A stretch of 33,462 nucleotides of DNA from a virus (lineage: Duplodnaviria > Heunggongvirae > Uroviricota > Caudoviricetes): IMG/VR virus record IMGVR_UViG_638341087_000016, one strand, 5' to 3'. Positions 1 to 25,464 of this stretch are shown here, piece by piece. The notes under the pieces are model-generated. The model was not told the origin of the DNA and searched no databases. It was given only the letters and a program-made list of their open reading frames with translations. The position numbers and the translations under genes are program-made. Every line of letters begins with the position of its first letter. The first letter of the stretch is position 1.

Positions 1-966
1 ATGAAGCTATACATCATCGGGAATGGGTTTGATCTGCATCACGAACTTGACACGAGCTATTTCTCATTTGGGGATTATCTTCGGAAGAAAGACCAAGACA
101 TTTACGATCACTTGGTTGATTTTATGGGATTTACTGACTTACCCCCTAAACTTTCCGCAGTTGATAAGTCAAAACATTTTCTTTGGTCTGATTTCGAAAA
201 CAGCTTAGCGGGTCTGGATACAGAGTCAGTGCTCGAAGAGTTTTGCTATCTTTTACCCCAAATTAGCAGCCCTGATTTTCGTGACAAGGACTGGGGCTCA
301 TTAAGCATTGAAATGGAACGTATACTAAAAAATTTAACCGAAGGGCTTTTAACACAATTCAAGTCATTTATATTGCAGGTTAACTACCCCGAACTTAATT
401 TAAATAAAAGATTGCGTATCGATTCTGACTCTATCTTTATCAGTTTTAATTATACTGAGACTCTTCAGAAATACTATGGTATTGATGATAGACAAATTTT
501 ATATATCCATGGAAAAGCATCATCAGATCAACAGTTGATTTTAGGTCATGGTATTGACCCTATCAACTTTGAAGAAAAGGAAGCAGTCCCGCCCGAAAAT
601 GCAACCGATGAAGAACTTGAAGAGTGGCGTCAGTGTATGGCTGATAATTACGATCACTCTTATGAAATGGGAAAGCAGACTATTAATAAATACTTCACTT
701 GTTCTTTTAAGAATACTGAAAAAGTCATTGCTGACAGCGCTAAATTTTTTAAAAATCTCAGCAACGTAGACGAAATCATCATCATCGGCCATTCGTTATC
801 ATCTGTAGATGTTCCCTACTTTTCTTTTATACATAGCATTGTTAGTGAAAATACGGAATGGATAGCCACCTATTATCAGGAAACTGAGCGTGAAGCACAT
901 CATACAACATTATGTGAGATTGGCATTAAATCTCCCAAACTGATTTCAGTAAGTAAACTTCTATAA
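1..966 (+). CDS. AbiH-like abortive infection protein
   Basis: 321-aa ORF beginning MKLYIIGNGFDLHHEL, the N-terminal signature I associate with the AbiH family; AT-rich relative to the phage core. Confidence 0.55.
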   Translation: MKLYIIGNGFDLHHELDTSYFSFGDYLRKKDQDIYDHLVDFMGFTDLPPKLSAVDKSKHFLWSDFENSLAGLDTESVLEEFCYLLPQISSPDFRDKDWGSLSIEMERILKNLTEGLLTQFKSFILQVNYPELNLNKRLRIDSDSIFISFNYTETLQKYYGIDDRQILYIHGKASSDQQLILGHGIDPINFEEKEAVPPENATDEELEEWRQCMADNYDHSYEMGKQTINKYFTCSFKNTEKVIADSAKFFKNLSNVDEIIIIGHSLSSVDVPYFSFIHSIVSENTEWIATYYQETEREAHHTTLCEIGIKSPKLISVSKLL

Positions 967-1550
967 ATAGAACAAAATATCACCCAGAGGGCGGGGGTTT
1001 TTATACGTTCCCCTCCCCCTTAGCTAGAGATCCTTTTATCAAAACTTCGTGCATCATTTTGCAAAACCCAAATCAAAGCAAACTAGCCGCCAGCCCTCAC
1101 CGCACAAGGCTTCACGATATCCGCCCCCGAAAACCATCGGATACCACCTAATCATTTTGATCGTCACGGAAACCAAAACGATCCTTTTAAAAACATCATG
1201 TTATCCAGTCAGTTAGTAGCTGGCGGCGCGATGACTTTTGCAAAGTGCTGCAAATCTTTGCGCAGAGTGCAACGCCCGCAGGATGCAAAAGCCCAGCAGC
1301 GGCGCAGGCTGGCGGGGTGCTTTGCACAAAATTTCTTTTGCAAAATTTTTATGATCCAAACTGCGCAGGCGGGTGCGGTGTAGCGCCGTTTCCGTCCTGG
1401 ATCCGCTTCCGTTTGCCTGCTGTCGCTTACGCTGTGGGCCGCTGTTGAACGAACGAAAGAAAGGCCGCACGGTGGCGACCTTTAATCTTTGCGCCTGCTG
1501 TGGCGCGTTCTGTGGTGTCTGGTGAGGTGTGCGGTTATGCCGCTTTTTTG

Positions 1551-3275
1551 TCAGGCTATCAGGGGGCCGTATTTGCTTTTCAATGTGCCGGTTTTATTGG
1601 CCGTTGCGGTGAACTGCGCCGCCTGCCCACTGGCCCCCGTATTGGGGTGAGTATGTGATGCGGCAGTCTCTGCCAGCTCCCTCACCACGTCCAGGGTGTC
1701 GGTGAGCAGTGTCAGGACGTTAATCTCTTCGCTTCCCAGCTTTACCACCGGGGCAATCAGTTGTTGCGCCTGGGCCACACTTCGGCGAATGCCGCTGATT
1801 TTTTCAGTCAGTGCGCCGCTGACGTTTGACGTGACATCCCCTTTCACGTCGTCTGTAACATTGCCCGCGACATCCCGTTTCACGTTCCGGCCAACACTGA
1901 CGGAATTGTCCTTGCTGCAGGTTACTGTCAGGTTGCCGGATGTGCCGACGCTGTAATCCCCCTCGCTGATATGAACGACCGCCCCGGCCAGAAGTGTGGC
2001 CGTGCCAAGCACGGTTGTTTTATCTGTTGCCTGGACCGTAGTTTCACGGGCAACCACTTTGCGGATCTCTTCGTCGGTGGTGACTTCGCGAGTCATGGAG
2101 TTTTCGCGGATTGTCTGATCCGTCTGGCGTTCCCAGTCTCCGGCAACCGTCACGCGCTGCGATACACCATCGCGCTGTTGCTGCAACTGCTCACCGGGTT
2201 TAACCGCTGGCAGGTTATGACCCTCCGCCATAATCTGACGCACAAAGGGCTTATCCTGCCGCCCCTCAGTGAACCCAACTTCAACCAGCGTGCCAGGGGG
2301 CGGAAACTGAAACATTCCTGACTCGCTGCCCGCCATTGGCACAGGTAGTGGAACGGCAGAATAGATCGGCGTATTTGCGGCTGGCTTGCCGTCTTCGTCA
2401 AGCAGCTGGAGATCCACGGCATAGCGTGGGCGGAATGGATCGGCAATATCCCCCCCTGAAACATCCTCGCTTGGCGCTTCCACCCTAGCGAATCTTGGAA
2501 GATGCAGGCCGCTTGCCAGCTCCGGGAATGCGTTTTCAATCTGCCGCTGAATGGGTGATTTTTGCAATGGCTGGCCGTTGGCTTTGTTGCGGGGCTGCCA
2601 GGTAATTGCCATGTCATCGTTATTTAGCCGGACCTGGTTCAGCCGCTGGCCGTTTACCTCCGCACCCGGGCGCAGGCTCTGAATCATTGGCACAACCATT
2701 GAATTTCCGCCTGCCGATTCCTGGCTAAATTCGTGCGGGATCTCCACTGGTTTTCCCGCAAAAAGACTATGCTCCGCAGCGCCGACGAAGACATCCCCGT
2801 CCGGCAACTGATACCAAAGATAATCCGTCACTGAAAATGCACGGCCCAGACTGGCAAAAAGCTGATAGCCCGTGCCGCTGTGCGTAAAGTGGGGGATCGG
2901 TTTATCTGCATAAGCAGCGCCGACCGGCGTTGTGACGGTCAGCCCGCTTTGCTCACTTATCCAGTCAGTAATCTGGCGCAACGTTGGATGCTGGAAAGAA
3001 CACGGCCACAATTTATCAAAGATGCCGACCAGCTCACGCACGAACAACCGGCATGTTCCATTATCAGCAGGCTGTGACCGTTCGACGTACCCGGTAAACC
3101 AGCGCAGGACCAGACCATCATAACCAACATCGATACGCACCATTTTGCCGGTGTAATCTGTCTCTGTCCCTGCCGTAATAAACCCCCGACCGCACGCGTT
3201 CAGCTCCAGCACGATATTGCAGTCAATCAGATGGACCGGATCAGAGGAAAGGTACAGGCGTTTAATTGGTTTCAT
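1551..3275 (-). CDS. D: Late control gene D-like baseplate hub protein with a C-terminal spike-like extension
   Basis: 574 aa; N-terminal region has the gpD-type VGYDG...FTGYVE pattern; C-terminal region has short repeats and an SHTHPNTG motif resembling spike apex HxH motifs; ATG start and TGA stop verified. Confidence 0.65.
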   Translation of the reverse strand: MKPIKRLYLSSDPVHLIDCNIVLELNACGRGFITAGTETDYTGKMVRIDVGYDGLVLRWFTGYVERSQPADNGTCRLFVRELVGIFDKLWPCSFQHPTLRQITDWISEQSGLTVTTPVGAAYADKPIPHFTHSGTGYQLFASLGRAFSVTDYLWYQLPDGDVFVGAAEHSLFAGKPVEIPHEFSQESAGGNSMVVPMIQSLRPGAEVNGQRLNQVRLNNDDMAITWQPRNKANGQPLQKSPIQRQIENAFPELASGLHLPRFARVEAPSEDVSGGDIADPFRPRYAVDLQLLDEDGKPAANTPIYSAVPLPVPMAGSESGMFQFPPPGTLVEVGFTEGRQDKPFVRQIMAEGHNLPAVKPGEQLQQQRDGVSQRVTVAGDWERQTDQTIRENSMTREVTTDEEIRKVVARETTVQATDKTTVLGTATLLAGAVVHISEGDYSVGTSGNLTVTCSKDNSVSVGRNVKRDVAGNVTDDVKGDVTSNVSGALTEKISGIRRSVAQAQQLIAPVVKLGSEEINVLTLLTDTLDVVRELAETAASHTHPNTGASGQAAQFTATANKTGTLKSKYGPLIA

Positions 3276-3282
3276 CGTTTAA

Positions 3283-3825
3283 TTACCCCAGCGCATCGTT
3301 GACCGGCTTTAAGACCTTTTCTTCAAACCAGCTCATTTTGTCGGCTGGCTCATCAGCTCCGGCAGCCGGACCCGCGCCCTTTGCCCCTGTTTGCTTGGTG
3401 CTGGCCGTCGCGTTGCCTTTTCGGGCCTGTCGTTTTTCCGGGACGCTGCCTTTTTCACGCAGGGTGAAACTTACCTGCCAGGCAAGGCGATCCTCCTGCG
3501 GTACGGCATCAATCTGACCGGTAAACGTGGCTTCACGAAGGTTGATAGCCGTCGCCGTCGCATTGGCGACGCGGTACTTTTTCAGTGCGCCGCTGGCTTC
3601 GGTCGCGGATGCCAGCTGGAAAAGCCGCTGTAAGACGGCTTCGTCGTCGAATGTCACCAGACCCGATACGCGCAGCTCTTTGGCCTTGATACCCTGTTCA
3701 GCATTGGCCGTGCTCGATGTCTGGCCCGACTGGTCCTTTTCCTGAAACTGCATGGAAGGTGAAACCAGCATGTTCTGCATGGCGATCCCTTCACCATCAA
3801 GCGCGAGTAATGCGGTCTGGCTCAT
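3283..3825 (-). CDS. Hypothetical phage tail/baseplate-associated protein
   Basis: 180-aa ORF in the tail operon, GC-rich like the phage core, Ala/Gly/Thr-rich; overlaps the upstream gene by 29 nt unless an internal Met is used. Confidence 0.4.
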   Translation of the reverse strand: MSQTALLALDGEGIAMQNMLVSPSMQFQEKDQSGQTSSTANAEQGIKAKELRVSGLVTFDDEAVLQRLFQLASATEASGALKKYRVANATATAINLREATFTGQIDAVPQEDRLAWQVSFTLREKGSVPEKRQARKGNATASTKQTGAKGAGPAAGADEPADKMSWFEEKVLKPVNDALG

Positions 3826-4531
3826 GTAGCATCTTCCCTAAGTCAGATAACGAATCCCCGATAAACATCATCGCGGCGGTATGCACTGCCGTTGTTTGCG
3901 GGATGCCTTTCAGCAATTCTGCGGCAGCAACGGCATAACTCCCGCTGTAACTGAATGCAAAAATATTCGCACTGGCGGCTTTCAGGTCGTCCAGTCCCTG
4001 GCTGAGCGAGGACAGCAAACCGGCCCGTTCCTGAATAAATCCCGTCACCTGGTTTTTTAGATCTGTTGTGGTGGTACTGACTGCGGCGGCCAGCTGCGCG
4101 GCGGCAACACGCTGGGCATTCAGCGCCAGCCGGTTGGTTGAGACTGATAACGGCGCACTGGCTGGCAATACATCGGCTTTAACCGGCAACTGCATTTTTA
4201 CCGTGCTGAGTTCTGCGGCGGCTGCGGCCATACGGCTTACCTGCGTAAATACCGGGGCCGGAAATACGGTGGACAGTTTATTCAGTCCCTGCATAAAAGC
4301 ATCGTGGGTATTCTCCGCCACCATCATGACGATGACATCACCGCTACCGCTACCGCTACCGCCACCGGATAACAGCTTTTTAGCAAGGTATCCCAGCGCA
4401 TTGGCCGGACTGAGATAACCGCCTGAATCGGTGTTCTGTCCCAGACCGTAAACCCAGGGATGCGCTGGCACAATTGAACAGGCCAGCGCCCCCATATCAT
4501 CAGCAATCTTTATAACCGACTCACGCCACAT
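3797..4531 (-). CDS. Hypothetical phage protein with a Gly/Ser linker
   Basis: ORF in the tail operon; start moved to the ATG at 4529-4531, which has a GGAGG about 9 nt upstream; contains SGGGSGSGSGD. Confidence 0.4.
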   Translation of the reverse strand: MWRESVIKIADDMGALACSIVPAHPWVYGLGQNTDSGGYLSPANALGYLAKKLLSGGGSGSGSGDVIVMMVAENTHDAFMQGLNKLSTVFPAPVFTQVSRMAAAAAELSTVKMQLPVKADVLPASAPLSVSTNRLALNAQRVAAAQLAAAVSTTTTDLKNQVTGFIQERAGLLSSLSQGLDDLKAASANIFAFSYSGSYAVAAAELLKGIPQTTAVHTAAMMFIGDSLSDLGKMLHEPDRITRA

Positions 4532-5108
4532 CGCCCGGAACCTCCGGCCAGTCAATATCTGGCGCATCTTCTGGCTTAATACGATTAATCAAAACCCTGT
4601 ATTTTTTCCACGCCAGCAAAAGCGCTGTTTCCTCTTCCGTTGCAATATCCAGATCAACAGCATCCTGTAATGGGGCAATTTTTGATGCAGCCAGCGCCAG
4701 AAGACTGTCTTTTTGCTGTGTAGCCTGTGTAATCTGTGCCGTTTTTTCTGCGTCAGCATCATGCACCCATTTTTTACCATTCCATTTAACAAAATGGCCT
4801 TCCGGCGCAACGGAAACAACGTCGTCAGGTAACTGACCTAATTCATCAATCGTGATGGATTTCCCGGTGAGAATGTCGTAAACAATTTTCCCGCGATGGT
4901 CTTCAACAAGTGACCATTTTTCTGACGCAGAATTAAATACAGCGACAAAACCGGCTTTCATCGGCGGTGGCGCAATATTGGTACTGTTAGCAGGCAAACC
5001 GGTATTAGCAGGGATAAACCCATCACTTTTCCCGATAAATTCATTTGTATCAGCACGCAGGTTATAGATGGTAATTGTCCGGTTTTCTCCGGTCATTTCA
5101 AAAGTCAT
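4521..5108 (-). CDS. Tail fibre assembly protein (Tfa / gpG-like)
   Basis: 195 aa beginning [48 protein letters not shown], a typical Tfa N-terminus; directly downstream of the fibre gene. Confidence 0.8.
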   Translation of the reverse strand: MTFEMTGENRTITIYNLRADTNEFIGKSDGFIPANTGLPANSTNIAPPPMKAGFVAVFNSASEKWSLVEDHRGKIVYDILTGKSITIDELGQLPDDVVSVAPEGHFVKWNGKKWVHDADAEKTAQITQATQQKDSLLALAASKIAPLQDAVDLDIATEEETALLLAWKKYRVLINRIKPEDAPDIDWPEVPGDVA

Positions 5109-7072
5109 CAGGCAAGCCTCACAATGTAGTTAAACGCAATATTTTTAACGGTATTTTCCGCATTTCCTGCGGCATGAACGGTCGCTGTATGTCCGTGATA
5201 GCCCATAACCACATAATGGTTATGCGCACCAATACCCACCCAGTGATCATGAGGGCCGATCCATGTCACATGAGCATGATTACCGCTTCCCTCAATGCGA
5301 TCTCCCGCCGCCCATGAAACATTAGACGAATGCATCCCCAGCCCCTGACCGGGGGTATCCCGGTATGCAGACGTTGCGCAATAACGAAAGTTATGTGCGT
5401 GCCACCCACCCTCAGTGGAGGATTTATTGCCGTAGTCAAAACTGGTTGTTGGTTTTGAACCATAATCAAAAGAGCTGGTGTATTTCGTCCCCAAATCGGT
5501 ATCGGAAATACTGGCTCCGTGGGTATGCGATATAACACCATCCTGTTCATACGAGAGTACCGCGCGACCGTTCGGTTTACCCTTAATCGTCTGGCCTCGC
5601 ATGTCCGGGATAATCCCCGCAGGATAGGCAATCGCTAGCAATGGATAGACCGCTTTATCAAAGGGCTGCCCCTGCATTAAGGCGTACCCTGTCGGGGTAA
5701 CATCCGATGGCCAGGGGATAGGTGCGCCGACAGGGTAAGAATCTTCTGGCATCCACGGCGTCCATGCCAGCGTTGAATACTTGCTGCGCGAATAACTGCG
5801 CGAGCTGTTGTACACACGATAAACCTGAGTGACTCCGGCACCTCTCAGTACCATCAGAGAACCCGCGCTATTCTCCGGGTAATTCATTGCTGCACTGGTA
5901 TTGTTGTTCGCTTCCTGAAAATAAAGCCCCGGTACCTGGTAATCATCCAGATTCTTATTTGCACCAATCGCTATAACCTGGCCGTCAAAAATATCCCGTG
6001 AAGTGACATTGATATCTCCATTCAGGGCATGGCCGTTCACTTTTCGTGATGCCGGAACGCGGCCATTTGCATTCTCATTCACCGCTTTTAATGCTTTTGG
6101 CGTGACGGCCATCGCTTCGGAATCACTGTTCGTTTCACTGCTTAACCGCACAAAACCCTTTTCACTGGTTGATGCATCAGGGTGATTTCGGGATTGTTCA
6201 TGCTTTTTCAGCGCATCGCTGGCCGCCTGGTCATTTAGCGTGCCTTTCGGGCGCAGGTCAGTGATATTTCCGGCAGCATCAATACTCGCCACCGCAAAGA
6301 CATAATGCTGCACACCGCCCAGCACATAATCGGCAAGATCTGCAGCAACAGTAATTTTGCTCTGTACAGCCCATTCGCTTGTTAACGTCCCGGTCCAGCT
6401 CACATCAAGCCAGATTTTTGTCGGTTTCGCGGATACTGTGATATTGAAGTTTGCGGGCAATTCGGCACGCAATCCGGCGACATATCCCGCCCCCTTTGTG
6501 ACAAAAAACTGATTGCCGGACTTTGCGACCAGATAGCCCGAATCAAAAAATGCCGCTGCGCCATACAGATCGATATTTTCCCGGCGCTGGCGTTCATCCA
6601 TTCCCACCAGTCGGGCAGTAAAATCAATCTGCCATGTCTCTGCCGGAGTGTTAATTTCGGTCGCTTCCCTGGCTCCGCTGTATTCCATCAGCATGGAACG
6701 AACAAGAACGTTTCCCTGCTGACCGTCTGCGTTTTTAATTTTTCGTTGGGTCGGGGCGTGAATAATCATCGCCAGTGTACCCGTTGCCTTATTTGCCAGC
6801 CCGATCCAGTTGAAATCAAAATCGCCCACATCCGCCCCCAGGGTAACGGAATAAACGACAGAGTTTTCATTCACAACACCGGCTTTATTCACCGCCTGAC
6901 GACAAACTATTTTATCTTCCGCTGGCGTTGTTTCAGTATTATTAATCGGCTTGTCAGCATCCAGCCCCGGAATATAAGCAAAAATAAACTCATCCAGCGT
7001 GACGGGCTGGTTATTAATTGCCTGCTGGGCTTTCCACTCTGCAAATGCTTTTGTAATGACGGCCTGTGACAT
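5108..7072 (-). CDS. Tail fibre protein (gpH-like N-terminus, His-rich C-terminal tip)
   Basis: 654 aa; conserved N-terminus and a C-terminal region with [30 protein letters not shown] histidine motifs typical of distal fibre tips. Confidence 0.8.
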
Positions 7073-7083
7073 TAATATTCCCT

Positions 7084-7683
7084 CTACTTCAAACTTGCGC
7101 TATATGTTGCTTCTGACTGGTTATTCACATCGCCCAGGGTGGCAGGCCAGCAAATATATTCCCCCTGATACCAGCCAATATTGATATTCAGTGGCAGGGT
7201 GTCGATTACTTCAAACTGGTAACGGCGGCATGTGCGCCCATATTTGCGAATGATTTCCAGCAGGAGATCGCCATTTTCCGCAACCTGGCTGCTTGTCACT
7301 CGAACGACAATCACGTCCCAGTCGAGTCCGTCCTGCCGTTCCAGTAATTCAACGTAACCAATCCCCAGTCGCTCAAAAATGGCAATAAAGCCCGCCACCT
7401 CTCCGGCCTGCTGCGCATTGATAAATGCGTAACTCACCCGCTTGCGGAAGATGTCGAGCGGCTCCCCCTTAAACCGATCGATGTCGCGCTCCCAGGCAAT
7501 CAGGTTCAACAGCGGCTCAGGGCAAACCAGCGGGTCAAACTGCTTTAACGGCCAGGTGATCCACCCGTACACCTGCGACCAGAACTTCACGCTGCCACGC
7601 AACAGCCTGGCGGGGTCGCCTTTGTTCAGCCACGACGGCAATTTCAGACCGGAAAGCAACTTCGAAAACTCAGTCATTTTCAA
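7084..7683 (-). CDS. Tail protein I-like (Mu gp48 / DUF2313-type)
   Basis: 199-aa ORF between the baseplate J-like gene and the fibre gene, the conserved position of this family. Confidence 0.6.
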
Positions 7684-8854
7684 TCTCCACCGTTAACCCT
7701 GACAGGCGCGGGACCGACAGTTCGCTGACAATATCCGTTAGTGAAAAATGCAGTGAATCGACAACCGGAAAAGCCTTGTGGATCTCGCGGCCCAGATTCG
7801 AAAAGGAATAGCGCGAATAGGGCTGCGTCTTTTTAACGTCGTAATTGGCGTTCTCGCGAAACGCGCAACGAATCAGGTCGGTAATACCGGTTTTTAACGC
7901 GCTCAGGTCTTCCGCTTCCATGTTTTCCACGCTTTTGACATAGACAGTAACCGCCAGGGTGTGACTGGTTTCCGGCATGGCATAACACTGCAGATCATCA
8001 CCGTGTCCGTGGTGGCCCTGGGTATTCACATAATCGTTAACCGCATCAATAAAGGGCTGTGATATTTCGCCGCTGTCCAGTAACAGATAAGCATTTGCCG
8101 TACCCGGCCCACGCGGGGCATCGTGCAAAAAGTAGATGCGATCAATGCTCAGGCCCAGCACGCTGGCAATCATGCTGCGGTAGATAGCGTCAGAGTGGTA
8201 ATTCCCCACCAGATTAAACTGGTTGCGGGTGCGGTCGCGCAGCTCGTCGTCGCTTTCCTCGTTAGCCCCTGGCGTAATCAGCCATTCGTCCTCATTGACC
8301 GCGCTGGCGATTCCAGCTACTGCAACAGGTAAGATCCGGTAATAGCCTGGCGCAAGGTTATAGCCGCTGCCGGTGCCGGTCGCCGTGACGGGAACCAGCC
8401 CGCTTTCAACCCCGGCAGGCAGTGTCACGTCTTCATTCACGGCCAGCACGTAAACCACGCCGTTAATGCGCTCTGTTTGCACCAGTGTTCCGGCAGGCAC
8501 GACGACCACATCCGCCGCATTCAGCTTGAAGAATCGCAGCACGCCAGCGGCAGCACTGGCCGGTTTAGGCTCGATATGAACCGCCCAGGCCAGCAGGCGC
8601 AGCATGGGACCGGTGGCAGTCGCAACAAACATATTGCGCAGAACCACATCGATCAGCGCCGCACGCAGCCATAACACCGGCGTGGTGACAATCTTCGAAA
8701 TCAGCCGCCAGAAAGGTGACATTCTCGACGTGTTTGTGACGAACCCTTCCGCCTGCACGGTGGCTTTAAATGCCGCCGTAATTTCGGCCTCTGTCGCGGG
8801 CATCCCGCTGTCATTCAGTACCTTTTCGAAATCAACGTCGGGTTTCTCAGTCAT
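7670..8854 (-). CDS. Baseplate J-like protein
   Basis: 394-aa ORF with a baseplate J-like sequence character; overlaps neighbours on both sides. Confidence 0.75.
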   Translation of the reverse strand: MTEKPDVDFEKVLNDSGMPATEAEITAAFKATVQAEGFVTNTSRMSPFWRLISKIVTTPVLWLRAALIDVVLRNMFVATATGPMLRLLAWAVHIEPKPASAAAGVLRFFKLNAADVVVVPAGTLVQTERINGVVYVLAVNEDVTLPAGVESGLVPVTATGTGSGYNLAPGYYRILPVAVAGIASAVNEDEWLITPGANEESDDELRDRTRNQFNLVGNYHSDAIYRSMIASVLGLSIDRIYFLHDAPRGPGTANAYLLLDSGEISQPFIDAVNDYVNTQGHHGHGDDLQCYAMPETSHTLAVTVYVKSVENMEAEDLSALKTGITDLIRCAFRENANYDVKKTQPYSRYSFSNLGREIHKAFPVVDSLHFSLTDIVSELSVPRLSGLTVEIEND

Positions 8855-9182
8855 AGTTAACCTCTGTACTGACAGGGCCGAAATCGTAGGTTTCCGCCGT
8901 GATATACAACCTCGAAAGGGTTTCTTCGGTGATCACTATGGTTCCTGGGACCAGACGTTCGTCGCTTTCCACCAGTAAGGACAGTTGCGTCAGCACGTCA
9001 CCGCGCATTGTCGGGCTGCGTTCACCGATCAGGCGGGTGGTGATACCGCTTTCCAGAATGCTGTGAATAATGTCCTGGGTGATGCTGTCGCGGTTATCGC
9101 AACGGCGCGGCTCGTTGCCGCTGTCCAGCGTGAAATCGCCGTCAGTGATCAAAAGGTCGATGTATAACGGTTCGGTACTCAT
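8847..9182 (-). CDS. Small baseplate protein (gpW/gp25-like or Mu gp46-like)
   Basis: 111-aa ORF immediately upstream of the J-like gene with start/stop overlaps. Confidence 0.5.
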   Translation of the reverse strand: MSTEPLYIDLLITDGDFTLDSGNEPRRCDNRDSITQDIIHSILESGITTRLIGERSPTMRGDVLTQLSLLVESDERLVPGTIVITEETLSRLYITAETYDFGPVSTEVNYD

Positions 9183-10570
9183 CCTGCGTTAAGCTCCTGC
9201 CATTCAGCCAGCTGGGCCGGGGTGATTCCATTGGGGGCGTTGATGTAGGTATCGCCCCACGTTTTACGGTTATCAACAGCGGTTTTGCTGTCGTTTTTAA
9301 CCTGACTCATCAGGCCGCCGCGTGGGATGCCTGCATTAATTCGGTTCCCCGTCAGCACGGACGGGCTGTTTAGCTTCGATGAACCTGCAGCACTGTCAGG
9401 AATGACCGCATTTGCCGGAACGGCAGCCGCTGCCGGTGGCGAAACGGTTTTCAGGTCGATGTTTACGCCGGGGATCTTGTTTAACTTCTCGACAATCCAG
9501 TTATAGGTAGACGCAAAGGTATTTTTGAGGACGTCAAAAAGTTTGCTGAATACCCCGCCGATGGTTTGTGCGAACCCTTCAAAGGTGGCAAGCGGGGAAA
9601 GACCGGCAAAGAAATCAACCACCACGGCCCAGCCGTCTGTGATGGACTGCCAGACCTGCGCAAACACCTGGCCTACCTGTTCAGCGACCGACATCACCCA
9701 GGCAAAAGCCGACGTATCCATGATTGCTGCCGCCAGTTCTTCCCAGTGGGTGATGACATACCAGACCCCCACGGCCAGAAGTGCCAGCCCGGCAACGATC
9801 AGAGTGATCGGACTCATCAGGAGTTGCATTGCCGCCCCGGCAAACATGGTCGCCGCACCGTAAACCCGCATGGCAATGGCTCCGGCCTTTAACGCGATAT
9901 TCCATGCAGCAAGCGCGATGCGGCAGACGCCCGTCCACAGCGCCAGTAATTTTGACTGGATCCACAATGCAGCCAGACCGATGCGCGTCGTCAGCAGGAA
10001 CGGACGCAACAGGTTGAGCGTCCATAACAGGAGTTTCCATGCCCCGCCCAGCACTTTTGCAATTGCGGCCAGCCCTGTCATGGTGAAGCCAAAGACCCCC
10101 ATCACGATATTGACCGCCGCCCCAGCCAACCCGAAGGACAGCACGCCCAGGGTGATGTAACCCAGCCAGCGGGCAATATTCGGGAACATATCCAGCCAGC
10201 GGGCAAATTTTGTCCCTACGTCGGCAATACGGTTCATCAGCGGCGACAGGATAGGGAACAGCGTGTTACCAATCGCCACGCGAATGGCAAAGAATGTCGC
10301 TTTGATACGTTCCCACGGCTCAGCCATTCGTTCGGCCATTTCCTGGGCGCGTTTCATCCCGTCATTTCGGCCCAGCTCGGTGATGCTGCGGTTTAATTTA
10401 TCCTGCTGGCCGTACAGCTTTTTGATAACGTCAGCACCACCACCGAACGCGGCATCCAGCGCCTGTTGTGCCTTGACGTTCCCTTCAATGCTCTGCCCGT
10501 ATTTGTTCTGGAGTTTTTGCAGAATGTCGCCCATCGGCAGCATTTTTCCGGTGGCATCGACAAAGCTCAT
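9179..10570 (-). CDS. Tail tape measure protein, C-terminal portion (downstream of the in-frame TAG)
   Basis: 463 aa with hydrophobic Gly/Ala-rich segments typical of tape measure proteins; the frame stays open upstream from 10570 to 10732. Confidence 0.7.
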   Translation of the reverse strand: MSFVDATGKMLPMGDILQKLQNKYGQSIEGNVKAQQALDAAFGGGADVIKKLYGQQDKLNRSITELGRNDGMKRAQEMAERMAEPWERIKATFFAIRVAIGNTLFPILSPLMNRIADVGTKFARWLDMFPNIARWLGYITLGVLSFGLAGAAVNIVMGVFGFTMTGLAAIAKVLGGAWKLLLWTLNLLRPFLLTTRIGLAALWIQSKLLALWTGVCRIALAAWNIALKAGAIAMRVYGAATMFAGAAMQLLMSPITLIVAGLALLAVGVWYVITHWEELAAAIMDTSAFAWVMSVAEQVGQVFAQVWQSITDGWAVVVDFFAGLSPLATFEGFAQTIGGVFSKLFDVLKNTFASTYNWIVEKLNKIPGVNIDLKTVSPPAAAAVPANAVIPDSAAGSSKLNSPSVLTGNRINAGIPRGGLMSQVKNDSKTAVDNRKTWGDTYINAPNGITPAQLAEWQELNAG

Positions 10571-10732
10571 ACCCAGCTTTTCAGCGGCAGCCGGGGCGCT
10601 GCGTAAAAACTGCTCGTAGATCCCGCTGGCCTCAGTACCCAGCGTGCGCGAAAGCGTACCCAGTACGGCGAACTGTTCATCCAGGCTGACGCCAAAGTCA
10701 GCACCGGCGCTTTTCGTCCCCTCGATAAGCTC

Positions 10733-11293
10733 CTACATGGTCTGCATTTTCACGCCGAAGTTTTGCACCATGTACGCCGTTTTTCCTGCCAGCTCTTCGG
10801 CAAAACGCACATGCCCCAGACTGGACAATTCCGCGTTGAAACGTGACGCCATCGCGCCGATGTATTCGCCTGCCTCTTCGCCGCTGGCCTTGACGCCTGC
10901 GGCCAGGGTATTGGCCGCGATGGTAACGCGGGGCAGGTCCAGATCGGACAGGCCCGCCATTGCGCCTTTCATCGCGTAGCTTGACCGGACCACATCAACG
11001 GCCCCTTTGCCGTAGCGCATACTGAATCGCATGGCTTCGCCGGACATACGCTTCAGCGCGTCCTCTGCTACGCCTTTGGAACCCACTTCTGCAAGCGCGG
11101 CGTTCATCTCATACGCCGGACCCACCACGCCCGCGATGGACTGCGCCACGCCCCAGACAGCCGCCGCACCAATCCCGATTTTTGTAAAAGACTCCTGCGA
11201 TTTTTCAGCAAAGCCAGACAGCGAAGACTGGGCCGTCTTTAATGGCCGCGTCAGCTTATCGATCAGGCTCAGGGTAAAATCCAGGTGGCTCAT
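10733..11293 (-). CDS. Tail tape measure protein, N-terminal portion ending at an in-frame TAG
   Basis: 186 aa in the same frame as 9179-10570; TAG at 10733-10735 verified from the sequence; ATG at 11291-11293. Confidence 0.7.
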   Translation of the reverse strand: MSHLDFTLSLIDKLTRPLKTAQSSLSGFAEKSQESFTKIGIGAAAVWGVAQSIAGVVGPAYEMNAALAEVGSKGVAEDALKRMSGEAMRFSMRYGKGAVDVVRSSYAMKGAMAGLSDLDLPRVTIAANTLAAGVKASGEEAGEYIGAMASRFNAELSSLGHVRFAEELAGKTAYMVQNFGVKMQTM

Positions 11294-22671: not shown

Positions 22672-25464
22672 TTAATCTGAAAGTTCACCAATATCATCCA
22701 TTGGTTTTTTATCATTAAAAGATAGACGAAGTTTTTGTTCATGTAATGCAGTGATTTTTTTACAACTATCTACAGAAATATAATAAAACGACAAGCCATC
22801 GTTATTAATAAATTCCAAATTAATCCTAATAGACATCAGCGCGTACATCAATGGATTTTCATCCTTGAAATTATACAACCCCTTAACTAAGGAAATATTC
22901 TCATCAGAAATACTTTCAATTTTCAAATCAAATAAATTAGTATTCCGCAGACAGGAAAATACGCTCAAAAAATCCATGTAGTAAAGACCAGGAGACCCCA
23001 AACCCAAAACTCCTTTTGAATCTGTTATTCTCATACCTTTTGAGTAACGGTAAACACTTGCCTCTCCTTTAACCATGTAATGAATTGTTATAAGCTTATC
23101 GGAAGGTAGTTCACTTACATCTTCGATCTCATTTACATCTTTATATTGGCCTTTAATTCCATCAAGCATTTTATGAAGCCAAGCATAGACAAACACTTCA
23201 GCATGATGTGAACTATTCATTGAATAATGCACTTTATCAATTGACTGCAAGACTTCTCTCTTATTAATCAATGAATAGAATGGATTGCAGACAACTGAAT
23301 TTGACACAGGAATAGAATCAATATCTACGAATTTATTAAAATACCCACCTAATGATATTGATACTTTATCTATGTATTTATTAACCAGAACCTTATCAAG
23401 GTCAGAAGAAACAATAGAATTTGCGATTAATTCATTTTTTACAGAAATTATACTTTCAAGATGCTCTGCAACCTCCATCCGATTTGTTTCTTGAGAAGAT
23501 CCTTCATTAATCAACTCTAATAAAGCTGAAAATTCATCACCTTTCAAATATGATATAAGTGATTGCAGTTCATGAGTTGTTATTTTTGTATTTTTAATAA
23601 ACTCTTTTTTATTACGTATAAAAATAGGATTGAGGTTGTTTTTATTAAATAATGTTTGAGTCATTAAAAGGGATACTGCTTTGAAAGCATCGTTATTTAT
23701 TGAAAAGGTTGCAACCTCATAATCAGGTATATCTCTTAAAGTTCTACTTGCATCAAAATCAGGTTCAGATGGGACTGTAAATATAACATCATACACGCCA
23801 CTCTTATAAAAAAGATCTTCTAGGAATGAAGGTGCTAACCATTTCATTAAATTCTGTTTTATTATTCTCAATTCCTCCTGATGCCCATCACTTTTTTCAG
23901 ATAAATAGCACAGCCTAATAATCAGTAAAGTTATAACCTGTCTTACACACGATACCATCTTGTTCTCAATGATACTAAGGGTTTCGCCATCATCAGATGA
24001 CTCTGGATAACGAAATTTCTCAGTCAAGAATCGAGTATTCAGGCTAAATGCCAAATAATTCTTTGACAAGATGTTGTCTCTCACCGTTGACATATATAAA
24101 TCAAAAAAACGATATTCTGGATCACCTAAACTATATTGAGCACGATGTTCCAATGACGGTGATATCAATTTATAAAATTCATCATATTGCTCATTATCAT
24201 AAATATACCTTCCCAAATCCATAATCGATCGAAGAGCATCACACACTATATTATAGTTTTTATACCCACTCACTTCAGAACTAACCTTCATATAAAAAGC
24301 AGCAAAAATTGAATACTCTATATTATTTTTTTTGTTAGTATAACCAAAAGAGTGATTGAGGTTATGTATTACTTTAACTAATTCAGTTTCACTAACTAAT
24401 GTGAAGATAGCTCTTATGCTAAAATCTAACGCTAACTCATTACCACTAAAAAGACTATTTCTTAAGCTAATAACTACTGCATCTTCATACTTACCGTAAT
24501 TCAAGAAGCTTTCAGGAGCTGAACTGAACACCAATCCTTTTTTCAATAGTTTTGTAACATTACTAATTAATAGCTCATCGATCGACGCTCCATCTTGCAC
24601 TTCAATATGAACCGATGAGGTTGATAGTGGATATATAAAGTTAAGATTCACGCGTAAATCAGTACGTACCACTTTCGAAAAACGCTCTAGCTCATTGTTA
24701 ATTTCTTTAAAGCAAATTGGACAAAAATCATTAATAATGACATTTTGATTATTTTGGAAAATATTTAACTTACGTTGTTCTTTATTGATAAAATCGGAAT
24801 CCCACCCATAATGAATATATTCAAAATCATTAATCATGTTTAAAAATTTATTTTCTATAGTTCTTCTACGTTCGTCAATCAATAAATAATCATTTTTAGC
24901 CTTATCAAGCTCAAAAAATAAACGATCAGTTATTATAGTTGGATTCTCAGTAACATTATATAATTTCAGATACATTGAACCATAATTAAAAATAAAGTAT
25001 AACGATACAAAAATGGATATAGCATAAGTAATCATGCCGCCACCACATGAAAGCAATACGATACCACTTAAAAGACTAAAAATAGAATTTAAACTAAACT
25101 TTAAAAAACTAGTTTTCCGCAACAACATCGACTTACAAATATTTTCAAAGCCATGTTCAGAATAATTAGAAACCTGACTAACAAACATTCCCATAAATGT
25201 AATTGATAGTGCAGCAATAGTTCCATGTATGCCTAAAACTCCCGCCCAAACACTAGTAGTCCAATTCAATGGGGAATTATTGAGAAAAGATGGTGTTACA
25301 AGTAAATACTTTACCCCTTCATCAACATATCTAGAGTAGATTACACCGGAAATACCCAACCCGACCAGAATAAAGTAGATCAAGAAGATAATTATAACTT
25401 CCCTATTTATACTTAAAAAACCATTATTAAAAATAATTTTTCTTTCCAAAATCAGACCCCACAT
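22672..25464 (-). CDS. Large membrane-anchored protein of unknown function; candidate single-gene anti-phage cargo
   Basis: 930-aa ORF with ATG start; about four N-terminal hydrophobic helices in residues 20-160 and a roughly 770-aa soluble region; very AT-rich coding sequence; no Walker A or other motif recognised by eye. Confidence 0.8.
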   Translation of the reverse strand: MWGLILERKIIFNNGFLSINREVIIIFLIYFILVGLGISGVIYSRYVDEGVKYLLVTPSFLNNSPLNWTTSVWAGVLGIHGTIAALSITFMGMFVSQVSNYSEHGFENICKSMLLRKTSFLKFSLNSIFSLLSGIVLLSCGGGMITYAISIFVSLYFIFNYGSMYLKLYNVTENPTIITDRLFFELDKAKNDYLLIDERRRTIENKFLNMINDFEYIHYGWDSDFINKEQRKLNIFQNNQNVIINDFCPICFKEINNELERFSKVVRTDLRVNLNFIYPLSTSSVHIEVQDGASIDELLISNVTKLLKKGLVFSSAPESFLNYGKYEDAVVISLRNSLFSGNELALDFSIRAIFTLVSETELVKVIHNLNHSFGYTNKKNNIEYSIFAAFYMKVSSEVSGYKNYNIVCDALRSIMDLGRYIYDNEQYDEFYKLISPSLEHRAQYSLGDPEYRFFDLYMSTVRDNILSKNYLAFSLNTRFLTEKFRYPESSDDGETLSIIENKMVSCVRQVITLLIIRLCYLSEKSDGHQEELRIIKQNLMKWLAPSFLEDLFYKSGVYDVIFTVPSEPDFDASRTLRDIPDYEVATFSINNDAFKAVSLLMTQTLFNKNNLNPIFIRNKKEFIKNTKITTHELQSLISYLKGDEFSALLELINEGSSQETNRMEVAEHLESIISVKNELIANSIVSSDLDKVLVNKYIDKVSISLGGYFNKFVDIDSIPVSNSVVCNPFYSLINKREVLQSIDKVHYSMNSSHHAEVFVYAWLHKMLDGIKGQYKDVNEIEDVSELPSDKLITIHYMVKGEASVYRYSKGMRITDSKGVLGLGSPGLYYMDFLSVFSCLRNTNLFDLKIESISDENISLVKGLYNFKDENPLMYALMSIRINLEFINNDGLSFYYISVDSCKKITALHEQKLRLSFNDKKPMDDIGELSD

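Follow-up and report, generated by a model that had tools for sequence, protein, structure and literature searches.

The tail-fibre locus

This analysis concerns a tail-fibre gene and its surroundings in a stretch of viral DNA of 33,462 nucleotides, IMG/VR virus record IMGVR_UViG_638341087_000016, which we call the window. The interval 5108-7072 on the minus strand corresponds exactly to one intact open reading frame (ORF) with an ATG start and a GAGGG ribosome-binding site 8 nucleotides 5' of it, encoding a protein of 654 residues. An initial annotation, made from the letters of the window, had described this protein as a tail fibre with a His-rich C-terminal tip typical of swappable receptor-binding domains, and had regarded the tip and the downstream chaperone Tfa as the usual host-range cassette. 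The identified domains and neighboring genes are collected in Table 1.

The gene belongs to an HP1-like (Irrigatiovirus-related, Peduoviridae) prophage of E. coli. The order of the backbone genes (tape measure, DUF2590, baseplate J, gpI-like, fibre, Tfa, HP1 orf33-like, HP1 ORF34 family and a 574-residue baseplate protein) is collinear with that of Salmonella phage SI7 (Irrigatiovirus) and of HP1, and the fibre has both the PF12571 N-terminal domain and the position after gpJ and gpI that mark baseplate fibres of Peduoviridae. Of 5,426 complete E. coli genomes, 19 contain the 3.4 kb around the fibre at 99.9-100% identity; among these carriers are O45:H2, O103:H2 and O111:H2 strains as well as isolates from cattle, poultry and swine. 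RefSeq names the identical E. coli copies "phage tail-collar fiber domain-containing protein" or "phage tail protein"; NCBIfam gave no match for the fibre, Tfa or orf33.

Table 1. Features of the fibre region. Positions refer to the window, residue numbers to the 654-residue fibre protein.
Feature	Position	Strand	Basis
Upstream baseplate genes: gpI-like (7084-7683) and gpJ-like (7670-8854)	7084..8854	-	PF09684, PF04865; ~90-97% nucleotide identity to SI7
Tail-fibre gene, gpH / HP1 orf31 equivalent	5108..7072	-	PF12571, PF03406, PF07484; phrog_8239 "tail fiber protein" over full length
N-terminal domain, residues 3-157, lineage-specific	6602..7066	-	PF12571 "tail-collar fibre protein N-terminal", E=1.5e-32
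"Phage tail fibre repeat", residues 301-340	6053..6172	-	PF03406, E=6.5e-15
Proximal recombination junction, residues ~336-353	6013..6065	-	SI7 match ends at 6065, SC476 match begins at 6013; sliding identity crosses over
Knob-like beta domain, residues ~367-443, part of the imported distal cassette	5744..5974	-	AlphaFold 2 (AF2) model, profile and Foldseek
Collar domain, residues 444-514, completed by residues 638-654 (5111-5161)	5531..5743	-	Aligned to T4 gp37 D10
Needle domain, residues 515-637, six HxH motifs	5162..5530	-	phmmer match to 2XGF, E=1.4e-68
Tip ("head") loop, residues 561-598 (NFRYCATS...EGSGN), hypervariable	5279..5392	-	Between the HxH motifs aligned to T4 H929 and H966
His-rich string quoted in the initial annotation, residues 599-628; descending strand of the needle with four HxH motifs 9 residues apart	5189..5278	-	Translation and positions
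Tail-fibre assembly chaperone Tfa, 195 residues	4521..5108	-	Caudo_TAP PF02413, E=1.9e-41; phrog_105

Two lineages within one fibre

The fibre protein was compared segment by segment with ten fibres, and the DNA by sliding-window identity and BLASTN. Residues 1-285 are 92-94% identical to SI7, 66-79% to ESSI2_ev129 and 42-51% to HP1 (92%, 66% and 51%, respectively, for the N-terminal domain, which would attach the fibre to the baseplate). Significant matches were found neither for this segment in T4 or lambda nor for the N-terminal domain in T4, lambda or the SC476 prophage, and some P2-like fibres gave at most weak partial matches of 27-33%. Residues 286-343, which contain the fibre repeat, are 43-67% identical in all comparison fibres except ESSI2_ev129 and T4, where the segment was undetected. 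Residues 344-443 are 83% identical to SC476, a P2-like E. coli prophage, and 72% identical to T-HYM1, with no match in SI7. The collar and both needle strands are ~70-80% identical in T4 gp37, lambda Stf and P2-type fibres, and 87-96% identical in SC476 and T-HYM1 (79% for the collar of T-HYM1). Residues 547-598, which hold the tip loop, reach 92-94% in SC476 and T-HYM1 only, and at most 36% in the other comparison fibres.

The DNA comparison gave the same border. BLASTN aligned the window to SI7 with 94.0% identity over 6065-10600 and with 92.8% over 1401-5167, a figure that averages in the less similar Tfa gene, leaving a gap at 5167-6065. By sliding identity, SI7 stays at ~90% down to ~6070, then falls to ~35-50% with an island of ~65-70% at the collar, recovers to 72-86% in the Tfa gene and, below 4540, returns to at least 93%. 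SC476 is at the level of noise (~40%) above 6070, 84-96% identical from ~6010 to ~4840 and 62-80% identical in the C-terminal half of Tfa, and the similarity is lost by ~4570, shortly before the 3' end of that gene is reached. Residues ~354-654 and the first half of Tfa have no or only a weak counterpart in SI7 and are 86-90% identical at the nucleotide level to a P2-like E. coli prophage. The matches to other relatives end at 6041-6051.

The separate comparison of the two halves proposed in the initial annotation revealed a clear recombination junction, with residues 1-285 shared with HP1-like fibres only and residues 344-654 shared with P2-like E. coli prophages (72-96%); rather than uniform similarity to a single fibre lineage, there is a crossover of the SI7 and SC476 identities at ~6070. 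The fibre is a recombinant, with residues ~1-335 from the HP1-like backbone and residues ~354-654 from another lineage. The fibre repeat, which is common to many fibre lineages and was also matched in Mu S by phmmer, is a likely patch of homology for the recombination.

One could object that the fibre descends vertically as one unit, and that it looks mosaic because its distal part has diverged faster under host selection. SI7 also has a gp37-type collar and needle (65-81% amino acid identity) and thus shares the architecture, and its collar region is still ~70% identical at the nucleotide level. However, identity to SI7 drops from ~90% to unalignable within ~50 nucleotides at 6065, SI7 is without a counterpart of residues 344-443, and the same 1.4 kb are 86-88% identical in prophages with unrelated baseplate genes (P2_I at 40%, or lambda J). 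Since gradual divergence cannot make foreign backbones more similar than a sister phage, we consider vertical descent refuted by these comparisons and very improbable.

A knob-like domain, a collar and a needle with six HxH motifs

The distal part imported by recombination is of the T4 gp37 type. Residues 444-654 match the receptor-binding tip of gp37 in structure 2XGF (phmmer, chain positions 27-242, E=1.4e-68), and the homologue profile matches the same chain with E=1.1e-105. The collar of gp37, domain D10, consists of residues 811-881 and 1010-1026, and domain D11 is the needle, whose HxH motifs bind seven iron atoms and are essential (PMC6957217). Our collar aligns with both parts of D10 and is also recognized by PF07484 (residues 449-496, E=1.4e-8); the limits of collar, needle and tip loop in Table 1 were transferred from the gp37 register.

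Residues ~367-443, just ahead of the collar, match no Pfam family. An AF2 monomer model of residues 337-654 has a mean predicted local distance difference test (pLDDT) score of 58.9, and this block, at ~85, is its sole confident part. A profile of 41 homologues matches the R2/R1 pyocin fibre chains at Knob2 positions (E=1.2e-5, 2.6e-5 and 4e-3), and in a Foldseek search with the AF2 model the pyocin fibres 6ct8, 6cl5 and 6cl6 rank directly after 2XGF (E between 7e-5 and 7e-4). With moderate confidence, we assign the block to a knob-like domain.

The protein contains six HxH motifs, at residues 516, 558, 599, 608, 617 and 626, and 14 of its 19 histidines lie within the last 150 residues, which confirms the repeated motifs that the initial annotation had pointed out. 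Whole-protein shuffling produced 0.52 motifs on average, five at most and never six (20,000 shuffles); when only the last 130 residues were shuffled, the five motifs observed there were reached 18 times in 20,000. The histidines are nearly all invariant or at least 90% conserved in an alignment of 11 fibre sequences, and all twelve HxH histidines are at least 90% conserved among the 41 homologues. Both the shuffles and the conservation speak for a conserved feature and against a compositional accident.

The six motifs are in register with T4 H883, H929, H966, H980, H989 and H998, i.e. with six of the seven gp37 sites. The T4 H915 site and a five-residue insert in the return strand are absent here and in the closest relatives. 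Building octahedral His6 iron sites from HxH motifs is a general principle in the trimeric fibres and spikes of phages (PMC6116203). Because they align with the iron-coordinating motifs of gp37, the HxH motifs are best understood as buried metal ligands that would form the structural core of the needle, not as receptor contacts. In a trimer, the two histidines that every chain supplies per motif would come together on the three-fold axis as an octahedral His6 metal site, and the stacked sites would staple the needle together. Six sites, one fewer than in T4, are predicted rather than seven because the H915 site is absent.

Alternatively, the His-rich stretch might be a product of chance or low complexity, or a surface patch for metal or receptor rather than a buried structural metal site. 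This idea has the raw histidine content in its favor and nothing more. Against it stand the shuffles, none of which yielded six motifs, the 90-100% conservation of the histidines across divergent homologues while the sequence between them varies, and their residue-for-residue alignment with the buried iron ligands of 2XGF. We regard it as extremely improbable and retain the metal-stapled needle.

The tip loop and its distribution

The 38-residue tip loop (residues 561-598), which lies between the second and third HxH motifs, is the predicted site of host recognition; the knob possibly contributes as well. In T4, the stretch between H929 and H966 holds residues essential for binding to lipopolysaccharide (LPS) and OmpC (PMC6957217). 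The initial annotation had treated the His-rich tip as the receptor-binding part. The C-terminal module is indeed of the receptor-binding type, but the HxH motifs themselves would be buried metal ligands, and the variable part is the loop of ~38 residues. This loop is at most 36% identical to those of T4, lambda and SI7, and 87-98% identical in a subset of prophages.

Two more specific proposals were rejected. An OmpC/LPS receptor by homology to T4 or lambda fails on the low identity of the loop. A fibre of the T2/S16 type, capped by a gp38 adhesin, is excluded, since the downstream protein is a Caudo_TAP/phrog_105 "tail fiber assembly" protein and the needle is complete.

The distal cassette is widespread. 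A tblastn search with the distal 318 residues matched 657 of 50,697 phage records, and collar and needle were found in T4-like Straboviridae, lambdoid siphoviruses, Peduovirus, ESSI2-like phages and others. A protein database contained 3,192 homologues at E<=1e-10, from Escherichia, Citrobacter, Salmonella, Hafnia, Enterobacter and other genera. The head type is found in IMG/VR (87-98% amino acid identity) on four backbones: the identical HP1-like prophage (L012-16), P2-like phages (L018-22, L035-36), myovirus-type loci with an invertase (L017, L023, L037) and lambdoid prophages with J and Stf (L028, L029). The lambdoid setting of L028 is confirmed by the gene upstream of the fibre, in which all lambda J domains are present, and by the first domain of the fibre itself, PF08400 ("prophage tail fibre N-terminal"). 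The suggestion of a tail fibre with a swappable tip is borne out by the gp37-type distal part and by the presence of the same tip loop on several backbones.

The side-tail-fibre genes of both lambdoid loci are interrupted, in L028 by an in-frame stop inside the head (6436-6438, W to stop) and in L029 by a stop just 5' of the collar (around 6001-6030). These interruptions recall the stf frameshift of laboratory lambda.

A scan of contigs with one genome per species gave a single match to the distal cassette; its only representative E. coli genome is without this prophage. The match, with a collar and needle of enterobacterial type (1889-2560, collar 70% identical at the amino acid level), lies on a 2.6-kb contig of Sulfoacidibacillus thermotolerans Y002 (contig64, L011). 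In an acidophilic Firmicute, contamination of the assembly appears a better explanation than a true phage fibre of the Firmicute.

The closest donors of the tip (L002, which is E. coli SC476, and L017, L023 and L037) have an invertase and a second, oppositely oriented tip and Tfa beside the fibre. Next to the fibre of L002 (region 3617-6527) lie a recombinase gene, a second Tfa gene and, in opposite orientation, a partial tail-fibre gene; this arrangement is a Gin/Cin-type invertible host-range switch. The company of such donors raises the possibility that our fibre, like those of Mu, P1 and the SC476 prophage, belongs to a switch of this type in which alternative exons encode the C-terminus. 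The arrangement is absent from the window. Between 3500 and 7500 we found no recombinase, no second Tfa gene and no alternative tip, and only chance-level pairs of inverted repeats of 14-20 nucleotides, with none longer than 20 nucleotides flanking the fibre. Instead, HP1 orf33/orf34-type baseplate genes follow directly after Tfa. An invertible switch at this locus is almost certainly not the explanation.

Tfa and the units of exchange

The ATG of the Tfa gene overlaps the stop codon of the fibre gene (TGATG), and the two genes are translationally coupled. The N-terminal 100 residues of Tfa are 87% identical to SC476 and 72% to SI7, the C-terminal 95 residues 64% and 80%. Tfa is thus mosaic itself, with an N-terminal half that travels with the tip and a C-terminal half closer to the SI7 backbone. 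The pattern fits the published modular model of Tfa, in which, according to the summary in PMC9608196, a variable N-terminal domain binds the fibre and a conserved C-terminal domain trimerizes (North et al. 2019). The downstream Tfa would be needed to fold and trimerize the tip. As for the postulated host-range cassette of tip and Tfa, the adjacency of Tfa and the shared passage of its N-terminal half agree with it, whereas the C-terminal half does not.

In its strict form, the cassette idea would have the whole fibre tip and Tfa exchanged as one indivisible unit. The match to SC476, L017 and L023 is indeed continuous from 6041-6051 through the end of the fibre to 4582 inside Tfa, and the translational coupling of the two genes points in the same direction. 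However, identity decays from 84-96% in the fibre and the N-terminal half of Tfa to 62-80% in the C-terminal half, where SI7 is the closer relative at the protein level, and other loci share sub-parts only. L028 and L029 share Tfa, needle, head and collar but not the knob, and their DNA match ends at 5737, the border between knob and collar. L024-27 share the knob, the collar and the N-terminal half of Tfa, not the head, with a gap at 5197-5460. The match to SI7 breaks at 5167, 5453-5713 and 6065. Breakpoints thus recur at domain borders, and we consider an indivisible cassette rather unlikely.

The sharing of sub-parts between loci and the decay of identity within Tfa argue for sub-genic domains as the units of exchange. 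We tentatively suggest, with more doubt than conviction, that these units are the knob, the collar, the distal needle with the head, the N-terminal half of Tfa and the C-terminal half of Tfa. In the same tentative reading, the needle with its six sites and its Cys-containing head of 38 residues may represent a receptor class of its own, as yet uncharacterized, and would move between HP1-like, P2-like, invertase-bearing and lambdoid prophages in Escherichia and Citrobacter.

Among 45 loci that are non-redundant though not phylogenetically independent, similarity in the N-terminal half of Tfa correlates with similarity in the collar (Spearman rho 0.65), in the head (0.42) and in the physically adjacent return strand (0.30). 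If real, this hint would mean that Tfa is paired with the collar and the C-terminal part of the fibre and not with the tip that binds the receptor, a rule that would be useful for the engineering of chimeric fibres.

A model for the fibre

Together, our data suggest a homotrimeric tail fibre of an HP1-like prophage. Its first ~335 residues, comprising the N-terminal domain, the shaft and the fibre repeat, would belong to the phage backbone. The distal ~300 residues would be an imported cassette of the T4 gp37/lambda Stf type, in which a knob-like domain and a collar are followed by a long beta needle whose chain extends to a small tip and then returns. Stapled by metal and dependent on Tfa, with the N-terminal half of the chaperone co-travelling with the cassette, this recombinant fibre is very probably the correct explanation of the locus as a whole. 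The integrity of the ORF, the domain homologies, the register of the histidines, the junctions and the presence of the modules on other backbones are direct observations, whereas trimer formation, the identity of the metal, the receptor, the dependence of the tip on its chaperone and the attachment to the baseplate should be read as expectations. We found nothing that contradicts the identification.

Several observations nevertheless weigh against parts of this model. The tip loop is only ~28-36% identical to those of T4 and lambda, and because it is so dissimilar, their receptors cannot be transferred to it. Tfa, too, shares only 72-87% of its residues with either "parent", which speaks against a history of one clean exchange. 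Iron and zinc cannot be told apart from the sequence, and crystals of T4 gp12 showed zinc (PMC6116203). The AF2 monomer is poor in the needle, with pLDDT values of 36-57, which is no surprise if the chains intertwine in a trimer, and for this reason the needle fold is assigned by homology of sequence only. Finally, given an amber codon in the tape-measure gene (see below), this prophage copy may be tail-defective, with a fibre that is not deployed on its virions though its gene is intact.

Comparison with known fibres

The C-terminus is near-identical to that of T4 gp37, whose chaperone gp38 is 37% identical to the N-terminal half of our Tfa. However, gp37 has 1026 residues and seven HxH motifs, compared with 654 and six here, its proximal part is quite different, and with a tip loop of ~28% identity its OmpC/LPS specificity cannot be assumed. 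Stf of Ur-lambda has the same repeat, collar and needle (55-76% amino acid identity) and a Tfa that is 59-62% identical, and in the lambdoid loci L028 and L029 even the head type is the same (88-90%). Unlike our fibre with its PF12571 domain, Stf starts with PF08400 and sits on a siphovirus tail tip beside J, not on the baseplate of a contractile tail.

The SI7 tail fibre gp20 and the HP1 orf31 family share the backbone (in the order DUF2590, J, I, fibre, Tfa, orf33, orf34), but the distal 300 residues of gp20 differ, without a counterpart of the knob and with a head of 31% identity. Conversely, P2-type gpH/gpG fibres and those of P2-like E. coli prophages have the distal cassette (72-96% in SC476 and T-HYM1, 61-63% in STYP1 and Chuche) and the same gene position after gpI, but their N-terminal 285 residues are unrelated or less than 35% identical, and SC476 adds an invertible segment. 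The R-type pyocin fibres (6CL5, 6CL6, 6CT8) resemble ours in the knob and in the HxH/His6 iron principle; they have a single iron site and a lectin-like end instead of the collar and needle.

That the tail-fibre tips of T4, lambda, P2, Mu and P1 are homologous and are exchanged horizontally has reportedly been recognized since the late 1980s and early 1990s, in work said to include that of Montag and Henning in 1987, Haggard-Ljungquist and colleagues in 1992 and Sandmeier in 1994. The phenomenon is thus not new: the homology of gp37, Stf and gpH tips, the HxH iron sites and the co-transfer of Tfa are known, and the exact protein is annotated in RefSeq. Beyond annotation, the significance of the locus is small, but it offers a clean and well-resolved case of modular tail-fibre evolution. 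The mapped borders (after the fibre repeat, between knob and collar, and flanking the head) could guide the host-range engineering of P2/HP1-type phages or tailocins.

Other features of the window

Taken from its first ATG, the HP1 orf33-like ORF (3797-4567, minus strand) shares 47 nucleotides with the Tfa gene. In SI7 the two genes overlap by only 11 nucleotides, so translation probably begins at an internal codon instead.

The tape-measure gene (9179..11293, minus strand) has an in-frame amber TAG at 10733-10735, codon 187 of 705. This codon is CAG (Gln) in SI7 and in four otherwise identical IMG/VR copies, and within the 301 nucleotides around it a single base separates the window from each of the 18 complete E. 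coli genomes that carry the region. The amber is a private nonsense mutation or a sequencing error.

An ORF of 930 residues (22672-25464, minus strand) lies in an island of ~30% guanine plus cytosine (GC) content (~22.5-25.5 kb) between the terminase/capsid module and the gpA replication gene, a typical position for cargo or defence genes in P2-like prophages. It gave no match in Pfam, PADLOC or the sequences of the PDB, and matched only PHROGs of unknown function (phrog_10073, phrog_18005). Next to the baseplate end of the prophage, a stretch of 37% GC contains an abortive-infection gene of the AbiH family (1-966, plus strand; PF14253, E=2.4e-60; AbiH in PADLOC).

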